In this document: positions 5,754-31,053 of the stretch, in pieces
Layout of the letters: every line of letters starts with the position of its first letter
How positions within the stretch are numbered: position 1 is the first letter of the stretch
DNA from: a virus
Length of the DNA: 64,000 nt
Reading direction: 5' to 3' (one strand)
Virus record (IMG/VR): IMGVR_UViG_3300021960_000027
Span: 1 to 64,000 of that record
The notes under the pieces: model-generated
What the model was told of the DNA's origin: nothing
Database searches by the model: none
The model's input: the letters and a program-made list of their open reading frames with translations, nothing else
Made by a program: the position numbers and the translations under genes

Positions 5754-5964
5754 AATGAAGCACATTGTTCATGTTCACCAGCAGAAAATTAAAAAGGGTG
5801 AGCCTGCGATCATTGACAGGACATACAAAGGTTCGACTCATCATCGAAGGGTTCGTATCGACGGTCCATGTACGATTGTTCAGTCTGATGTCCCTGATAG
5901 GTGCGGAGCAAGGGTGTGGATTGAGACTGAGTCTGAAGTGATCTACTTAGACAGTGGTGAGTAG
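5746..5964 (+). CDS. conserved phage protein (HVHQ..I / CGARVWIET)
   Basis: motif widespread in aquatic phages. Confidence 0.65.
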   Translation: MDEMKHIVHVHQQKIKKGEPAIIDRTYKGSTHHRRVRIDGPCTIVQSDVPDRCGARVWIETESEVIYLDSGE

Positions 5965-5975
5965 ATTTAGAAATA

Positions 5976-6251
5976 ATGTTGTCGTATCCCGAAGGAGGTG
6001 GGAAGTTGACAAATGAGAAATTGCAGGAGTTGAGGGATACTGAAAAGTATCCGCTGACGAACGAAGAGTACATGTGCCTTGTTATCCGAGAGTGCAACAC
6101 TCGCAGTTGGTCTGGGGAGAACAACCCAACTCACCGCCGTGATTGCAGGTTCTGCGCGGAGATTCTTTTTTCCGCAAGAGAGTTGCGCGATCGTGGTATG
6201 ATTTTGAATGAGCAGGGGCAACCAGTCCCAAGGGAGGGGAAGACAAGTTGA
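5976..6251 (+). CDS. hypothetical protein (start may be TTG 6006)
   Basis: AGGAGG RBS; CRFC motif. Confidence 0.55.
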   Translation: MLSYPEGGGKLTNEKLQELRDTEKYPLTNEEYMCLVIRECNTRSWSGENNPTHRRDCRFCAEILFSARELRDRGMILNEQGQPVPREGKTS

Positions 6252-6562: not shown

Positions 6563-7012
6563 ATGCAAACTTTTGCTCCAGAGGGTAGAAGGATCGAAGA
6601 CGGGTTTCGTGTTCTTGATTACAAGCGGTTGGGTAAACAACGAGTTGAGGCTTGGCAAATTCTCAACGTATTGCGTGGCGTAGACAACGAAGGCAAACCC
6701 AAAAATCACAAGGGTTGGGTTAACCACCCTGCCACCAAGATGTGGCGTGGTCATGTGACTGCGCTCGCGTTCTACGGCGTAAAGTGCTGTGAAGAGTGGC
6801 TGGCACGGGGTTACAACGACACCATGCTCCCGCGATTCCAGTCAGTTCTTGATGACTTGATTAGCAAAGGTGGCGATCCAACTCCACCTGAGTTTCTTGA
6901 TATGATTTTTCTTTCGCATCAGAGCAATTTGATTCGTAAATCTCCAGAGTACTATCGAACTATCTATCCAGATGTACCGGATGACATTCCGTACACTTGG
7001 CTGGATGACTAG
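6563..7012 (+). CDS. MSMEG_6728 family / pyrimidine-dimer DNA glycosylase (DenV-like)
   Basis: MQTF, LDYKRLGKQRVEAWQIL, NHPATKMW, SHQSNLIRK.PEYY motifs. Confidence 0.85.
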   Translation: MQTFAPEGRRIEDGFRVLDYKRLGKQRVEAWQILNVLRGVDNEGKPKNHKGWVNHPATKMWRGHVTALAFYGVKCCEEWLARGYNDTMLPRFQSVLDDLISKGGDPTPPEFLDMIFLSHQSNLIRKSPEYYRTIYPDVPDDIPYTWLDD

Positions 7013-7090
7013 GGGCAGATTGGTTTAGCCCGTGTTGAAAGCCGCATGTCGGAACTTCACGGTACGAGGGTTCGATTCCCTCCTGCTCCA
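7012..7090 (+). ncRNA. mini-tmRNA / tRNA-like-domain-only RNA (Ala identity)
   Basis: acceptor GGGGCAG/CTGCTCC with G3-U70 and A73; T-arm GAGGG-TTCGATT-CCCTC; no D stem; CCGTG/CACGG P2a-like helix; no mRNA-like domain. Confidence 0.75.
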
Positions 7091-7242
7091 CAATGAGCCA
7101 GTTTCCAAACCTTAACGACGACTTCCCTAAGCGTTTTATAAAGGCAACCTTGGTCTGGTTCGCCGCGCTGTTTGTAGTTCTTTTGTTATTGAACTGAACT
7201 GTGTTAAGTTTTTAGTTTTTAGGGAGGAAGGTTTAAGTTGAA

Positions 7243-7482
7243 ATGATTGGTCAAGATTCGCGCAAAACACATGTTGGGGATTTTCTTGTGTCTTCGGTTA
7301 GGGGCGACGATGAGTATGGTTTTGGTTCATTGAACGAAACTTGTGTGTTCTATTGCCCGAACGGTTTTACTGCCGTTGACAGCGATTCTTTGGTCGTGGG
7401 TTCGTACAGCGACCACGATTCTGTTGTCTCTGCCATTTCATTTGCCATGAAGTGTTTTGGACAGGTAAACGCAAGTGCCTGA
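7243..7482 (+). CDS. hypothetical protein
   Basis: GGAGG upstream; 79 aa. Confidence 0.5.
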   Translation: MIGQDSRKTHVGDFLVSSVRGDDEYGFGSLNETCVFYCPNGFTAVDSDSLVVGSYSDHDSVVSAISFAMKCFGQVNASA

Positions 7483-7774
7483 TGTGTCCGCAACCAAGGA
7501 GGTTATTGACATGACAGTTGATGAGAAACAGCAAGAGCAGAACAACAAGGCAACTTTAAGGCTTGCTCAAATGTGGATGGACTTGGAAGAATGCCATTTC
7601 AGTCTTACCCACCAAAAGGAAGATACGGAAGCCAGAGGGCGGGAGTATCTTGACCAAAAGCAGATCGCTGAACGGATTCAGTCTGTAATGGACGTTCTTT
7701 ACCACGCGGCTCACTGTGAGCAGGAGCCAGACGAATACTGTCAGCGTTGCAATCCGGTGGTTTCAACACAATAG
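7475..7774 (+). CDS. hypothetical protein (start probably ATG 7511)
   Basis: AAGGAGG RBS; HC...CQRC. Confidence 0.6.
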   Translation: MPDVSATKEVIDMTVDEKQQEQNNKATLRLAQMWMDLEECHFSLTHQKEDTEARGREYLDQKQIAERIQSVMDVLYHAAHCEQEPDEYCQRCNPVVSTQ

Positions 7775-10804: not shown

Positions 10805-12856
10805 ATGGCATTTACAAAGTTCGCTCGTTCAAGTGTATTAGAGGCTGAAGTCGCTGGTCGTTCCGGTGGCTTGATGAAGAACGCTCACCGACATACGTTT
10901 GATTACACCCCACGGGAGGGATACTTGTATGTTCGGTCTAGGGCGATTTCTTCCAGAACGAACGACAACTTTGACACGTTCCCTTCTGAAGAAATCAAGA
11001 AGGCGTGGGCTACGTTTGTAGGTAAGCCAGTTTTTGTTAACCACCACAATGACGATCATCGTCGTGCGCGTGGTGTTGTTATTGACGCGGCTCTGCATGA
11101 GGACATCGCTCCAGACGGCACAGATGACACTTGGGTTGAGGTGCTGATGGAAATTGATGCCATCACGTTCCCCAAGTTGGCGAAAGCAATTCTTGCTGGC
11201 GATATTGAGCGGACAAGCATGGGTTGCGACGTTGCTTTTTCTGTGTGTTCTGTGTGTGGCAACAAGGCGACGACTCCGATGGAGTATTGCTCTCATATTC
11301 CTCGCATGAAAGGTCAGCGCATTCGTCGCAGGACAGCGTCTGGTTCTGGCACTGAGGATGTGCTTGTCCATGAGTTGTGTCATGGGCTGTCGTTCTTTGA
11401 GAACAGTGTGTTAGTCGAAGACCCTGCTGACCCGACTGCATATTTTATTGGTGTTGATGATCGTGGTGTCGGGGGTGGCTACACGGGCACGGTTACCAAA
11501 GCCGCGTCTAAGGCTGATGCTAAGAACGATGGTGATTTATGTTCTCAAGTTTCTCTTGGCACAACCGCCAGTGAGTTTGGCTCATACGAGTCAAAACTGT
11601 CTCTGTTTATCGGTATGGCAGAAGAGACGATGAAACGGCAGGGACTGACTGGTCGGAAAATTGAGTTGCCAGTCGGTCGCCAAGACGATCCGCAATATCA
11701 GCGTGCTATCGGTATCTGGAATGAATGGGCAAGGAAAGTCTCTGGGCTTGGTGTTATCTACATCCGTACAGGTACATCGTATGACACAGATTACGGTTAT
11801 TTAAAAAACAATCAGGCGTTTTACCAAAACGGCACGATTGTTGCTCGCCAATCAACAGATGAATTGACGCTATTGCATGAGATTGCCCATGCGATCCAAT
11901 TTAATGAAGGGCTTGAGGCTGGGGGGCACAACGTCGACTTTGCTCGCATTGCAAGCAATTTGTACCACAAGCACTTAGGCAAACAGGCAGGGGATTTGTT
12001 TGACGAGGTGTCCGCTTGGAAAGACTTTGAGTCTGGCAAGTTGTCTAGCAAGAGTGCATCTAAGCCTAAGGTTGATGTTGAGGCCGTCCCCCTAGCAATA
12101 AGTGGCTTTGACCTGCGTTCGTTCACAGTCAACGGGGAGAACTACAGCATAAGCACGGGTGGAGATGCTGTTGGGGGTGGACAGTACAACGGATATCTCG
12201 TTGCGTACGATTCAGGTGGGCGCAAGGCTGGCTACATCGATTACATGCAGTTGGGCGATGAGGTACAGATTGCGATGATTGAGGTAGAGCCTGAGTTCCG
12301 CAGAAAAGGTATTGCAACAGGTCTGCTAGGTGCCCTGAAGGTTCACACAGGATCAGAAAAAATTGATTCTGGCATGCTGACAGACGATGGCGGTAAGTGG
12401 TGGAATTCAGTCAATTCTTCAAGGCGTGATCGGTACTCAAACATGTACTCCGCTTCGCTTATCAAGAAGAAAGCGTTGACTGAGGATTCCAAGCCCGGTG
12501 TTTGGGCATCATCGATGCTTGATGTGGCTATTAACGCTTCAAATGGTGACGGAGATTGCTTTCCCTCGGCGGTAGCCACGGCACTAAAGTTTGAATCTAA
12601 AAATCCCTTGATTTGTCATGGACAGCCAATCTTCAAGGGGAATGGCGAGATGAACGGACAGCCATACGACCATGCTTGGGTTGAAATTGGCTCTACTGTT
12701 GTTGACCGCTCAAATGGACGAAAGGGCGACGGCGAGTTCCCTAAAGAACTGTATTACGATGTGGGGAACATTGACGGTGCCTCTGTTCGTCGTTACACGA
12801 TTGAAGAGGCGATGCTCAAAATCAGTTCTAATGGTCACTGGGGACCGTGGCGATGA
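10805..12856 (+). CDS. capsid maturation protease fused to zincin (HEIAH), GNAT and transglutaminase-like domains
   Basis: N-terminus YLYVRSRAISSRTNDNFD, KPVFVNHHN, TSMGC, FFENS...DPADPTA (Bxz1/E3-type protease); later LLHEIAH, IEVEPEFRRKGIAT and GDCF...HAWVE..D. Confidence 0.85.
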   Translation: MAFTKFARSSVLEAEVAGRSGGLMKNAHRHTFDYTPREGYLYVRSRAISSRTNDNFDTFPSEEIKKAWATFVGKPVFVNHHNDDHRRARGVVIDAALHEDIAPDGTDDTWVEVLMEIDAITFPKLAKAILAGDIERTSMGCDVAFSVCSVCGNKATTPMEYCSHIPRMKGQRIRRRTASGSGTEDVLVHELCHGLSFFENSVLVEDPADPTAYFIGVDDRGVGGGYTGTVTKAASKADAKNDGDLCSQVSLGTTASEFGSYESKLSLFIGMAEETMKRQGLTGRKIELPVGRQDDPQYQRAIGIWNEWARKVSGLGVIYIRTGTSYDTDYGYLKNNQAFYQNGTIVARQSTDELTLLHEIAHAIQFNEGLEAGGHNVDFARIASNLYHKHLGKQAGDLFDEVSAWKDFESGKLSSKSASKPKVDVEAVPLAISGFDLRSFTVNGENYSISTGGDAVGGGQYNGYLVAYDSGGRKAGYIDYMQLGDEVQIAMIEVEPEFRRKGIATGLLGALKVHTGSEKIDSGMLTDDGGKWWNSVNSSRRDRYSNMYSASLIKKKALTEDSKPGVWASSMLDVAINASNGDGDCFPSAVATALKFESKNPLICHGQPIFKGNGEMNGQPYDHAWVEIGSTVVDRSNGRKGDGEFPKELYYDVGNIDGASVRRYTIEEAMLKISSNGHWGPWR

Positions 12857-28095: not shown

Positions 28096-28481
28096 ACGGT
28101 TACGTTGAACGGTGTGTTCGGTCGGCAAACAAGAGGGGAATCTTAAACCAGAAAAATTTATCGCTCTTACAAAAGGAATGCTTGGACATCATGCTGTTCT
28201 TGGAATCAAAAGAGAAAGAAGATGCAAAGTATGAGCAATTCCGTCTTGCAATGCTTTCTGGGGCACCTCAATACGCAAATAAATTTTTCCCTGAATATTT
28301 CCCAGAGCAGGTCGAAGAGGCTGTTTCTGAAGAAGAAATTGATAATGCATTAAATCAAAGTTCTGGCACCACCCGCTTCCAAGAAATGGATAGCGCAGAT
28401 GCTGAAGAAATTATCAAAATGCTAGGGGCATCTGTAAAAATGAGCCTTGATGATCTATCTGAAGTAGACGAAAATGGCTGA
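28062..28481 (+). CDS. tail assembly chaperone, -1 frameshift extension
   Basis: G GGA AAA at 28062-28068; the -1 frame is open without stops through to 28481. Confidence 0.8.
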   Translation, partial: GKRGFRFGRFIDGYVERCVRSANKRGILNQKNLSLLQKECLDIMLFLESKEKEDAKYEQFRLAMLSGAPQYANKFFPEYFPEQVEEAVSEEEIDNALNQSSGTTRFQEMDSADAEEIIKMLGASVKMSLDDLSEVDENG

Positions 28482-31053
28482 TCGCATTCCACCAATATCT
28501 TCTGCTCGTCCAGATACATCGGTGGGTATGGCTGGAACCCCGTTTGCTCCACCAGTTTCAGAAATTAGCACCGCTATCGCGGCGGGTTTCTCATCTGTCA
28601 TACATGACATGAGGGCAATGCACGCTGAAATGGTCAACATGAGCAGGACGATTGCTCAAAATGCAGATATCTCTGCTCGCAGGTATTCGACGGCATCTGC
28701 CATTCCAGATGGTCAGGGTGGCCTTTCTTCGCCCTCTGGAATGTCTCAAGAAGGCGCGGCGTACAGTGCAGGTCGTGCCCGTGCGGTAGCAACTGTTGCA
28801 GGGAGCCTCCCTATTGCCCCTCCTGTGGACAATGTTAGTAGGGATGCAAATGCTTTTTCCGATGCGTACGCCCGTGCAAGCAGTGGGGGAGTATTGCAAG
28901 ATGCCCGTGCGGGATTGGCTAATCGAATTGCGGAAAGGGCGCAGAACTGGGCGGGTCCGCAACCAATTCAAGACCCTCGCGATCCAAATGTTTTTTATCG
29001 TTTTGATCCAAACGTGTCGTGGAACGAAGCGGCTGGCCGTTGGCAAAACAGGGTAACCAAGCAATTTGTATCTCAATCAAGCATGGACGCAACAAGAATT
29101 GTCCAAACGCCGGGATTTAAGCAGTTGCCAAATGGCAGTTGGCAGAATATTGCAACTGGAAAGTTTGCGAGTATTTCTGAGGTAAAAGCCGCGGCAACTG
29201 GTTTGGACGAAATGGCGAGGATTGCAAGTCGTCAAAGGACTGCTGGTGCAATTAGTTCTGCTACAAATGCCTTTGCATCTGGTCAACCGCTTGGAAAGTC
29301 CTTGCTCGCGGCTCTCCCAGCAGAAAGCGCGGCAACAGTTGGTCGGGTAGCGGGAACTGCCGCGGCTGTGTACGGGATGTACCGTCAGGGCGCGGCAAAG
29401 TCACAAGAATTGTACGCAAAAGGTCAGGCGATATCGCAGTACACAGGCGGTTCTGCTTTTGAGGGCTACAAGGAAAGTTTGCGGGATGACTTCCGCTCAT
29501 ACCTTGCAGGATTTAACCTTTTTGGTCCGGGTGCGGGCGACATGAGGGCGTTACTGGGTCAAGCCAATCAGTTGGGCATGCGAGGTCAACGAAAAGACGA
29601 GTTTGTTAGTTACGGCATGGACATGATGGGCGACCTAAAGATGGGTAGCCAAGAAGTGACAAGAATTATGTCGGCAGTCATTCTGGCTGGAGATAGTTTG
29701 GGCGGGCTTTCTCAAAACCTTCAGCAACTTAATGTCGCGGCGAGAGAAGCGGGACGTTCAACGCTACAGGCAAGAGATGATTTCTTAAAGGTTTACAACT
29801 CGTATCAAACCGGAGTTCTGGCTGGTTCTGAAGGGGCAAAGGGAATTGCGTCAAGCCTTGTTTCGGAGTCACTTGGACTTGGAGAAGGGTCTGCTCAAAT
29901 TGGACTTTCAGCAACTACTGCATCTATTCAGGCGGTTGCTGGTCGATCTGGCTCCACCTATGCAGAAATAGCAACTGGGCTAAGAGGAACTGGAACTGCT
30001 CAGGCAAATGCGGTTTCTCAGTTTTACGCGTCTGCTAAACAACTTCTTGATAATCACACTGGAACTTCTGGAATATCCTTTGGTCAGTTTGCACGGCAAT
30101 GGCTAAGGGATTGGTCAGAAAACCATAAAAGAGACGCTGATTACGATGAGAATAATCCTTTTGGCAAAGTATTTACTGAACAAGTATTTAGAAATCAGGC
30201 TATTGATGCCGCGCTAAATGCCGGATTCAGAATTGAAATTATAACCCGAATCATGCAATCCGCAGGATTCACTACAGACCAGCCCAATGATGCAACAATG
30301 TTTGTGGTTGCAATTAATGTTTACTCGGATGAAATTGCAGGAGAACTAGGCGCAACATCTTCTACTGCGACTGCTGGCTCAACATTGGGACAATCTGCCG
30401 CGGCACAGCAACAGCGAATTGCCCCAACGGAAACTTCTGCAAGTGGTGGAATAGAAACATTTGGAAATTACAACGAGGCTGGCGGTCGCGCACTTGATTA
30501 TGCAATCGCCCAATACGCGAACTATGGAACCGGCAATTTTGATCCTCTAGTAAATTATCTTGGAAGTCAGGGCATCGTTCCTGAGGGGACAAATCGTGAG
30601 GACGTTGTTTCTGCTTTGCAATCGGGAACGGGCAGTAGGAGTTTCATCTTTGAGCAACTTATGACCGACGTTGGATTGTCTAGTGGTGAATTGAAGGGGA
30701 ATCTTGATGATCGGATGGTTGATTACGGGGAAGAGGGTTTTGCCGGTCTAAAGGTTGAAGTGGGCGGTCAAGAGTACACGATTGGTGAGGCCGCGATGAA
30801 CAGTGATGTTATCGCGGCTATCCAGCGTGGAGAAGGCACAATAAAAACCGGAGATCAGGCAAGTAGAACCATCAGTGAACTGTATGGAATGCCAGAGGGT
30901 GGGTATCCAAATGCTTCTGGCTCAACCGTTCAAATAAGGCTTACTCCGTGGGCAGAACGCTTTTTTGAAATTGACTCTTCATTGGTTACAACTAACTCCC
31001 CAGTTTCTTGGGATGGAAACGCCAATACGACGGCGGGGGCTAATACACGATGA
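28474..31053 (+). CDS. tape measure protein
   Basis: 859 aa, Ala/Gly-rich helical; follows the chaperone. Confidence 0.8.
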   Translation: MADRIPPISSARPDTSVGMAGTPFAPPVSEISTAIAAGFSSVIHDMRAMHAEMVNMSRTIAQNADISARRYSTASAIPDGQGGLSSPSGMSQEGAAYSAGRARAVATVAGSLPIAPPVDNVSRDANAFSDAYARASSGGVLQDARAGLANRIAERAQNWAGPQPIQDPRDPNVFYRFDPNVSWNEAAGRWQNRVTKQFVSQSSMDATRIVQTPGFKQLPNGSWQNIATGKFASISEVKAAATGLDEMARIASRQRTAGAISSATNAFASGQPLGKSLLAALPAESAATVGRVAGTAAAVYGMYRQGAAKSQELYAKGQAISQYTGGSAFEGYKESLRDDFRSYLAGFNLFGPGAGDMRALLGQANQLGMRGQRKDEFVSYGMDMMGDLKMGSQEVTRIMSAVILAGDSLGGLSQNLQQLNVAAREAGRSTLQARDDFLKVYNSYQTGVLAGSEGAKGIASSLVSESLGLGEGSAQIGLSATTASIQAVAGRSGSTYAEIATGLRGTGTAQANAVSQFYASAKQLLDNHTGTSGISFGQFARQWLRDWSENHKRDADYDENNPFGKVFTEQVFRNQAIDAALNAGFRIEIITRIMQSAGFTTDQPNDATMFVVAINVYSDEIAGELGATSSTATAGSTLGQSAAAQQQRIAPTETSASGGIETFGNYNEAGGRALDYAIAQYANYGTGNFDPLVNYLGSQGIVPEGTNREDVVSALQSGTGSRSFIFEQLMTDVGLSSGELKGNLDDRMVDYGEEGFAGLKVEVGGQEYTIGEAAMNSDVIAAIQRGEGTIKTGDQASRTISELYGMPEGGYPNASGSTVQIRLTPWAERFFEIDSSLVTTNSPVSWDGNANTTAGANTR

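Follow-up and report, generated by a model that had tools for sequence, protein, structure and literature searches.

The first 64,000 nucleotides of IMG/VR virus record IMGVR_UViG_3300021960_000027 (hereafter the window, whose positions are used throughout) contain a gene for a 79-nt RNA, at 7012-7090 on the plus strand, that consists of one part of transfer-messenger RNA (tmRNA), its tRNA-like domain (TLD), without the mRNA-like domain. Ribosome rescue and protein tagging in bacteria are chiefly the work of trans-translation, which is also a drug target. The window RNA is best read as a TLD-only tmRNA of the type of Mycobacterium phage DS6A, most likely one that competes with host tmRNA and leads to rescue without a degradation tag; we give this reading as a whole a probability of about 0.72. 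It draws on the structure of the element, on compensatory change across a family of relatives and on an alanine identity pair that is almost invariant among them.

A tRNA-like domain without an mRNA-like domain

The element, 79 nt when counted up to the discriminator base, is supported by its fold, by alignment to the Rfam tmRNA model RF00023 and by two covariance models (R1 and R2, below). Its acceptor stem is formed by GGGGCAG (7012-7018, with G3 at 7014) and CTGCTCC (7083-7089, with U70 at 7087), which pair at all seven positions and are followed by the discriminator A7090. The D-arm is replaced by the unpaired ATTGGTTTAGC (7019-7029), with GG at 7022-7023. The 5' strand of a P2-like helix (7030-7037) comprises CCGTG, two U residues that face U and G7037, and its 3' strand (7055-7062) comprises C7055, two U residues and CACGG. 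The helix thus has 5 bp (7030-7034 with 7058-7062), two U-U mismatches, 1 bp and a 3-bp hairpin cap, with 23 nt separating CCGTG from CACGG. The cap is the apical hairpin CCG-CATGT-CGG (7042-7052; CCG 7042-7044 with CGG 7050-7052), set off by internal loops rich in A, with GAAAG on its 5' side and AA on its 3' side, and the GCATGTCGG tract (7044-7052) is the 3' part of this conserved hairpin. A 3-nt link, TAC (7063-7065), leads to the T-arm (7066-7082; GAGGG 7066-7070, TTCGATT 7071-7077, CCCTC 7078-7082), which holds the genome's sole GGTTCGANTCC motif. CAA follows the discriminator, and only C74 of the CCA tail is therefore encoded.

The minimum-free-energy fold (-28.6 kcal/mol) is exactly the proposed structure, and adds the G7037-C7055 pair beyond the two mismatches as well as the 3-bp hairpin. 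An earlier note, made by a model from the sequence alone, had described the acceptor stem with G3-U70 and A7090, the D-arm substitute, the CCGTG/CACGG helix, the TAC link and the T-arm at these same positions, and had pointed out that CCA is absent from the gene; all of this proved accurate.

Within the Rfam clan CL00001, RF00023 was the best match of the element; lower-scoring clan matches were set aside. The model aligned the lone element end to end (model positions 1-374), matching acceptor stem, D-loop, P2 base and T-arm through positions 1-29 and 334-374 and replacing the 304 middle positions by 13 nt, with a score of 38.3 bits against a gathering score of 47; at gathering scores, Rfam gave no match in the window. 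No mRNA-like domain, resume codon, tag frame or stop was found in the 13 nt that take the place of those model positions, and ARAGORN gave no tag peptide. The pseudoknots PK1 to PK4 are missing, and 79 nt leave no room for them. With ARAGORN, neither the window nor the 117,937-bp genome as a whole gave any tRNA or tmRNA call, and the element is not a canonical tRNA. The "mini-tmRNA" of the earlier note, a tmRNA TLD lacking the mRNA-like domain, the tag open reading frame (ORF) and the pseudoknots, is therefore borne out by both the fold and the RF00023 alignment, and we retain the name. Among 22 relatives tested, 17 reached the RF00023 gathering score (6 of 7 and 11 of 15), including loci L019 (51.0 bits) and L037 (48.3 bits); DS6A, L024, L180, L023 and L045 fell below it.

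A hidden tag ORF was considered and rejected. A GCA in the apical hairpin followed by an in-frame stop occurs in 2 distinct relatives (3 loci: L009/L042 and L096) and in neither the window nor L037, the frame check beyond those two sequences having been made by eye.

A covarying family, almost entirely viral

Relatives were collected by pattern scans, four of a viral-contig collection and one of a cellular-genome collection. The first, in which the acceptor stem and T-arm of the window were fixed, returned 47 loci, comprising 21 ordinary tRNA-Ala genes of 71-75 nt and 26 elements of 75-89 nt with the architecture of the window RNA; a scan with a free acceptor stem returned at least 120 rows. 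The patterns fixed GGGG, G7, the D-loop GG and part of the T-arm, and invariance at those positions is a matter of ascertainment, as it is for the D-loop GG columns that are invariant in alignment A1.

In a MAFFT alignment of 29 relatives that was not fitted to any structure (A2), the proposed partners formed standard pairs in 95.9% of cells, against 35-52% when partners were slid, and the covariation score was 0.639, against 0.05-0.11 slid and a level reached by none of 500 shuffles. Both-sided changes were seen at all seven P2 pairs and at three of the five T-stem pairs, and acceptor pairs 4-6 covary among relatives. In a model-fitted alignment of 60 distinct relatives, the three stem pairs of the apical hairpin were standard in 52, 46 and 41 sequences. 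The search for covariation in phage genomes that the earlier note had proposed as a check thus revealed strong compensatory change.

The covariance model R1, built from the 29-sequence alignment, gave 76, 62 and 53 matches in three locus sets, a total of 191 collected matches including the window and representing 142 distinct sequences of 75-100 nt (mode 79 nt). On R1 the window scored 83.8 bits, the family 45-93 bits and ordinary phage tRNA-Ala at most 43.9 bits; the window element is the single match in its whole genome. A second model, R2, was built from 25 sequences with the window and every relative of its AGC type (described below) left out. On it the window scored 73.5 bits (E 2.7e-14) and DS6A 63.5 bits, and no phage tRNA-Ala gene exceeded 44.3 bits. 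Because of this comparative evidence, namely the covariation and the R2 score from a model without the window, the element is more than a chance fold.

The G3-U70 pair is the identity element for alanyl-tRNA synthetase (AlaRS) in both tRNA-Ala and tmRNA. In the family it is present in 140 of the 142 distinct sequences, and a discriminator A in 139. The 3' acceptor strand was fixed by the first search pattern alone, and in the set obtained with a pattern constraining only the hairpin, link and T-arm, all 37 distinct sequences carry G3-U70. In those same sequences pair 4 is GC (17), CG (13), UA (6) or GU (1), and pair 5 is CG (23), GC (13) or UA (1). With pairs 4 and 5 variable around a constant G-U, the stem therefore evolves freely by compensatory change around G3-U70. 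As judged from these alignments, the fixed pair is the signature expected of selection for AlaRS recognition, and its near-invariance suggests that charging, and hence entry into the ribosome, matters in nature.

Nearly all of the 191 matches are on viral contigs. A single hairpin-link-T-arm pattern matched 63 viral-contig stretches, as against 2 in cellular genomes represented by one genome each of 185,579 prokaryotic species. Those two, L202 and L203, are on contigs of metagenome-assembled genomes labelled Pseudonocardiaceae (19.9 kb) and Synechococcaceae (2.1 kb), and could represent DNA of a phage or prophage that was binned together with its host.

The window element belongs to a minority subtype, in which the D-loop analogue ends in AGC, where most of the family has CGA, and the link is UAC, where most relatives have GAC. 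AGC-type ends go with a UAC link in 9 of 10 distinct sequences, and CGA-type ends with GAC in 96 and UAC in 4. The RF00023 consensus has G opposite A and A opposite G as its two outermost P2 positions; of these the subtype retains the former and has C opposite U in place of the latter. SmpB binds at the junction of D-loop and P2, and the correlated AGC/UAC change suggests a conserved contact there. The closest RNAs to that of the window (L019, L024 and L037/L038; about 90% identical by eye) belong to unrelated phages in which scaffold and capsid genes follow shortly downstream, in neighbourhoods that have no protein in common with that of the window. Across 63 family contexts, CCA is encoded in 11 and a C follows the discriminator in 56.

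A molecule of this kind has been described before. According to its main text, PMC4131195 (Hudson, Lau and Williams 2014) lists "Mycobacterium phage DS6A (TLD only)", and a 2025 tmRNA database paper repeats the entry as "Phage__Mycobacterium.9" (PMC11915505; tmRNA Website tmID 11587). Citing Mao et al. 2009, both papers relate that tmRNA is strongly inhibited by a molecule similar to this one, whether or not it can be charged, perhaps via SmpB titration (PMC4131195; PMC11915505). A literature search for a published survey of TLD-only phage tmRNAs found, in main texts, these two papers naming DS6A, and supplements may list more. The novelty implied by the earlier note consequently falls away: publication of a phage tmRNA of the "TLD only" kind dates back to 2009/2014, and the same covariance models match DS6A and the window.

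The DS6A element itself lies at 28478-28557 of JN698994, in an unannotated gap between gp33 and gp34, and scores 63.9 bits on R1. Its architecture is that of the window element in every part: G3-U70 in the acceptor stem, a D-loop without a stem, a P2-like helix with the A-rich internal loop and the CCG/CGG hairpin, and then a 3-nt link and the T-arm. Both copies lie between protein genes. The two differ in the acceptor sequence (GGGGCCG in DS6A, GGGGCAG in the window), the end of the D-loop (CGAC and AGCC) and the link (CAC and TAC). Their carriers differ as well, DS6A being a 60.6-kb temperate actinophage with an integrase, whereas the window phage is 118 kb, marine or estuarine, and without an integrase; no protein synteny was detectable between DS6A, the window phage and other carriers. 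On this sequence evidence the window element is a divergent, unannotated new member of the DS6A-type phage RNA family.

With bacterial tmRNA (SsrA; RF00023) the window RNA shares the alanine identity pair, the stemless D-loop with GG, the T-arm and the substitution of a P2 helix for the anticodon arm, but it is without resume codon, tag frame, pseudoknots or encoded CCA, and at the P2 base it has C opposite U instead of A opposite G. Organellar tmRNAs that lack a coding sequence (those of jakobid and oomycete mitochondria, and the plastid forms of about 65 bp in Mallomonadaceae), here compared by description, are likewise natural reductions to about the TLD, and according to the main texts of PMC11915505 and PMC4131195 they still co-occur with SmpB. 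They are, however, the organelle's own vertically inherited rescue RNAs, served by a nucleus-encoded SmpB, whereas the phage RNA is encoded by a virus and would operate alongside the host's own, intact tmRNA. Laboratory TLD fragments, such as the Thermus thermophilus TLD with a UUCG loop (PDB 2CZJ), similarly have the tmRNA 5' and 3' ends linked through a short helix with a cap (passages in PMC3929946), but are engineered and lack the conserved A-rich loop and CCG/CGG hairpin of the natural phage RNAs. Passages of PMC3929946 and PMC3895274 relate that these fragments are alanylated and bound by SmpB, and that they accept the peptide after entry into the ribosome with EF-Tu. Phage tRNA-Ala, finally, has a similar acceptor stem (in some cases exactly GGGGCAG/CTGCTCC), G3-U70, discriminator A and T-arm, but is 71-75 nt long, has a D-stem and an anticodon arm with UGC or CGC, is called by ARAGORN, and scores at most 44.3 bits on the mini-tmRNA models, against 73-84 for the window.

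Genomic setting

The record is a 117,937-bp virus, rated complete, with 127-bp terminal repeats, and has a G+C content of 47.8%. Upstream of the mini-tmRNA on the plus strand is a 149-aa ORF (6563-7012) for a DenV-like pyrimidine-dimer DNA glycosylase (PF03013, E 4.9e-21), and G1 of the mini-tmRNA is the last base of its TAG stop codon (7010-7012). Downstream, a candidate ORF of 34 codons with a hydrophobic C-terminal half (7093-7197, plus strand) starts 2 nt past the discriminator. No promoter-like or terminator-like sites were found in the flanks adjoining the element. Abutment of a stop codon was seen in 4 of 63 non-redundant family contexts, all four of the AGC/UAC subtype; the other 59 have a gap of 4-200 nt or no upstream ORF. 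The upstream stop codon likewise abuts the element in the three closest relatives, L019, L024 and L037: the TAG-G1 overlap of the window recurs in L037/L038, and in L019 and L024 a TAA ends just ahead of G1. If RNase P cut 5' of G7012, the denV-like mRNA would end in ...UA, with an incomplete stop codon. Read-through of the TAG, after which the upstream frame is open for 36 further codons across the element, was given no weight, as about one quarter to one third of random stretches of such length would likewise be open.

The complete genome encodes no SmpB, Pth, RF-1/ArfB-type domain, CCA-adding enzyme or tyrosine integrase, and SmpB is also missing from all five other near-complete carrier genomes tested (98-100% complete, 111-168 kb). 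Clustering of 1,471 flanking ORFs from 184 loci in search of partner proteins gave no consistent neighbour: no gene family occurs in more than 20 of the 184 loci, and the commonest are replication, recombination and head genes. Other tRNA genes are present in 44 of 190 loci, and the genome of the window has none. In some large phages the mini-tmRNA is inside a tRNA gene array (L094, L236, L244, L048), and in L048 a tRNA begins 4 nt past the mini-tmRNA discriminator, directly after Rfam's extended match.

Neither megablast and blastn of the region nor blastn of the element alone matched any of 50,697 phage records; the neighbouring 527-aa protein had no relative in viral contigs; and tblastn of the local ORFs, and of all genome ORFs of at least 100 aa, against all fetched loci gave scattered distant matches without synteny. 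The nearest cultured phage, as judged by the DnaE-like polymerase, is merely 32.9% identical. A relative with about 92% identity, present in contigs of four DNA runs from mangrove metagenomes, spans 6945-7707 and has no indel inside the element. Elsewhere in the window, a 683-aa ORF (10805-12856, plus strand) is an unusual fusion: its N-terminal region matches phrog_2774 and a head-maturation-protease family, and SprT-like and GNAT acetyltransferase signals are present as well.

Two carriers have self-cleaving ribozymes near the mini-tmRNA. L167, which is of the AGC/UAC subtype, has its mini-tmRNA at 7286-7362 and, some 1.4 kb upstream, a type II hammerhead (RF02276; 5839-5903, plus strand; 39.7 bits, threshold 37). 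In L126 a Pistol ribozyme (RF02679; 6093-6154, minus strand; 51.9 bits against a threshold of 34.5) is on the same strand as the mini-tmRNA (5908-5987, minus) and about 100 nt upstream of it, which suggests ribozyme-assisted 5' processing of the mini-tmRNA in that phage.

In eight carriers (L054, L088, L126, L238, L104, L249, L236 and L244) ARAGORN reported "tmRNAs" of 285-695 nt that share their 3' end with the mini-tmRNA and are assigned tag peptides of 9-30 residues. The Rfam tmRNA model, applied to L054, L126, L104, L249, L236 and L244, aligned the element of about 80 nt only. These long calls, by which annotation could be misled, probably arise from false pairing with a 5' end far upstream.

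Proposed interference with host trans-translation and alternative readings

Since no partner proteins are encoded by the phage, the RNA would have to work via AlaRS, SmpB and EF-Tu of the host. The mini-tmRNA would be co-transcribed with the denV-like gene, host RNase P would release its 5' end at G1, and 3' trimming followed by the host CCA-adding enzyme would complete the tail. Host AlaRS could then charge it with alanine via G3-U70 and A73, and host SmpB and EF-Tu would bind it. Laboratory TLD fragments go through these steps, accept peptide on stalled ribosomes and support template-free polyalanine synthesis, as described in PMC3929946 and PMC3895274. In this form it would compete with host tmRNA for SmpB and stalled ribosomes, and nascent chains would receive at most an added alanine and no degradation tag, because the phage RNA has no resume codon or tag frame. 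The net outcome would be that tagging by host trans-translation is blocked or bypassed during infection. Of the functions put forward in the earlier note, an SmpB/EF-Tu decoy and tag-less rescue have published backing, the published experiment favouring inhibition by titration, whereas a decoy for anticodon-targeting toxins is unlikely for an RNA without an anticodon loop.

Several observations weigh against this interpretation. The window's P2 helix contains two U-U mismatches, the stability of the fold is by itself unremarkable (z = -1.55, with 13 of 200 shuffles at least as stable), and the RF00023 score of the element alone is below the gathering score. Binding of SmpB by the window RNA is an assumption, because the AGC/UAC type alters one of the two non-canonical P2-base positions of the tmRNA consensus, within the presumed SmpB-binding junction. 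In public sequencing runs the stretch was found in marine, estuary and mangrove DNA runs only, and in no RNA run. Lastly, simple SmpB titration may not be the whole mechanism, because the published inhibition is independent of charging while the alanine identity pair is almost invariant.

This last point would be consistent with a true helper in rescue, in which the charged mini-tmRNA and host SmpB free ribosomes stalled on the many broken mRNAs of the infected cell. Chains would gain a single alanine or several but no protease tag, and host ArfA/ArfB, or drop-off and Pth, would finish the release. The near-invariance of the AlaRS identity elements argues that charging, and with it ribosome entry, matters, and passages in PMC3929946 and PMC3895274 describe peptidyl transfer and template-free polyalanine synthesis by TLD and SmpB in vitro. 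We nevertheless consider this reading unlikely: the phage has no release factor-like protein or Pth to complete the reaction, SmpB is host-limited, so that any use of it competes with host tmRNA, and the sole in vivo result cited in the main text of PMC4131195 is inhibition of tmRNA.

A joint reading, which we regard as distinctly improbable, is that charged mini-tmRNAs do more than soak up SmpB and act on ribosomes, turning host trans-translation into tag-free rescue or template-free alanine tailing, and that in the window's lineage production of the RNA also generates the substrate on which it acts. With RNase P cutting at G7012, the TAG would lose its last base, and every processed denV-like mRNA would become non-stop. 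If this were true, the denV-like product would escape ssrA tagging only with the mini-tmRNA present.

The same arrangement could be read as punctuation, the element being there mainly for host RNase P and 3' trimming to separate the denV-like gene from the following ORF in the polycistronic transcript, with the excised RNA functionless. The overlap of the upstream TAG with G1, the ATG 2 nt past the discriminator, the lack of promoter-like or terminator-like flanking sites and the abutting stops of L019, L024 and L037 fit such a role. RNase P and RNase Z, however, need only the acceptor/T-arm stack, which leaves G3-U70, A73, the tmRNA-type GG D-loop, the apical hairpin and the tmRNA-model match unexplained, and the rarity of abutting stops among the family contexts further makes this explanation very improbable.

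A decoy for defence or toxin systems that attack the tRNA acceptor end or the aminoacyl group, sparing host tRNA-Ala or tmRNA, would be in keeping with the mimicry of the acceptor/T half of these RNAs and with the near all-viral distribution. The missing anticodon loop bars it from serving against anticodon nucleases, the 184 loci show no defence or anti-defence gene as a regular neighbour, and nothing was found that points to such a target; we consider this reading very unlikely.

Negligible in our view is a degenerate origin, whether an aberrant tRNA-Ala, an attP-type remnant of the 3' end of host ssrA or half of a two-piece tmRNA: ARAGORN does force a tRNA-Ala call on four relatives (one distinct sequence), and the permuted-tmRNA model RF04321 gives a weak partial match with the 3' end cut off (26.5 bits against a threshold of 47), but the element has no D-stem or 7-nt anticodon loop, its acceptor strands are in cis and covary, the genome holds one T-arm motif, one model match and no tyrosine integrase, and length and structure are conserved across the 142 distinct sequences, which excludes the two-piece and attP-like forms that the earlier note had named as possible refutations.

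A competitor of the DS6A type that acts on host trans-translation is therefore the reading we prefer. A phage RNA reduced to the alanine-accepting end of tmRNA would be a natural tool to block or rewire trans-translation. The finding introduces no new principle, as the DS6A "TLD only" tmRNA and the inhibitory effect are already in print. It extends the family to uncultured marine phages without detectable relationship to actinophages, shows it to be a large one that is found almost exclusively in viruses, and reveals that divergent members such as the window element escape standard annotation. Charging in nature, as suggested by the near-invariant identity pair, is not required by the published titration explanation, and bears on how phages control host translation.

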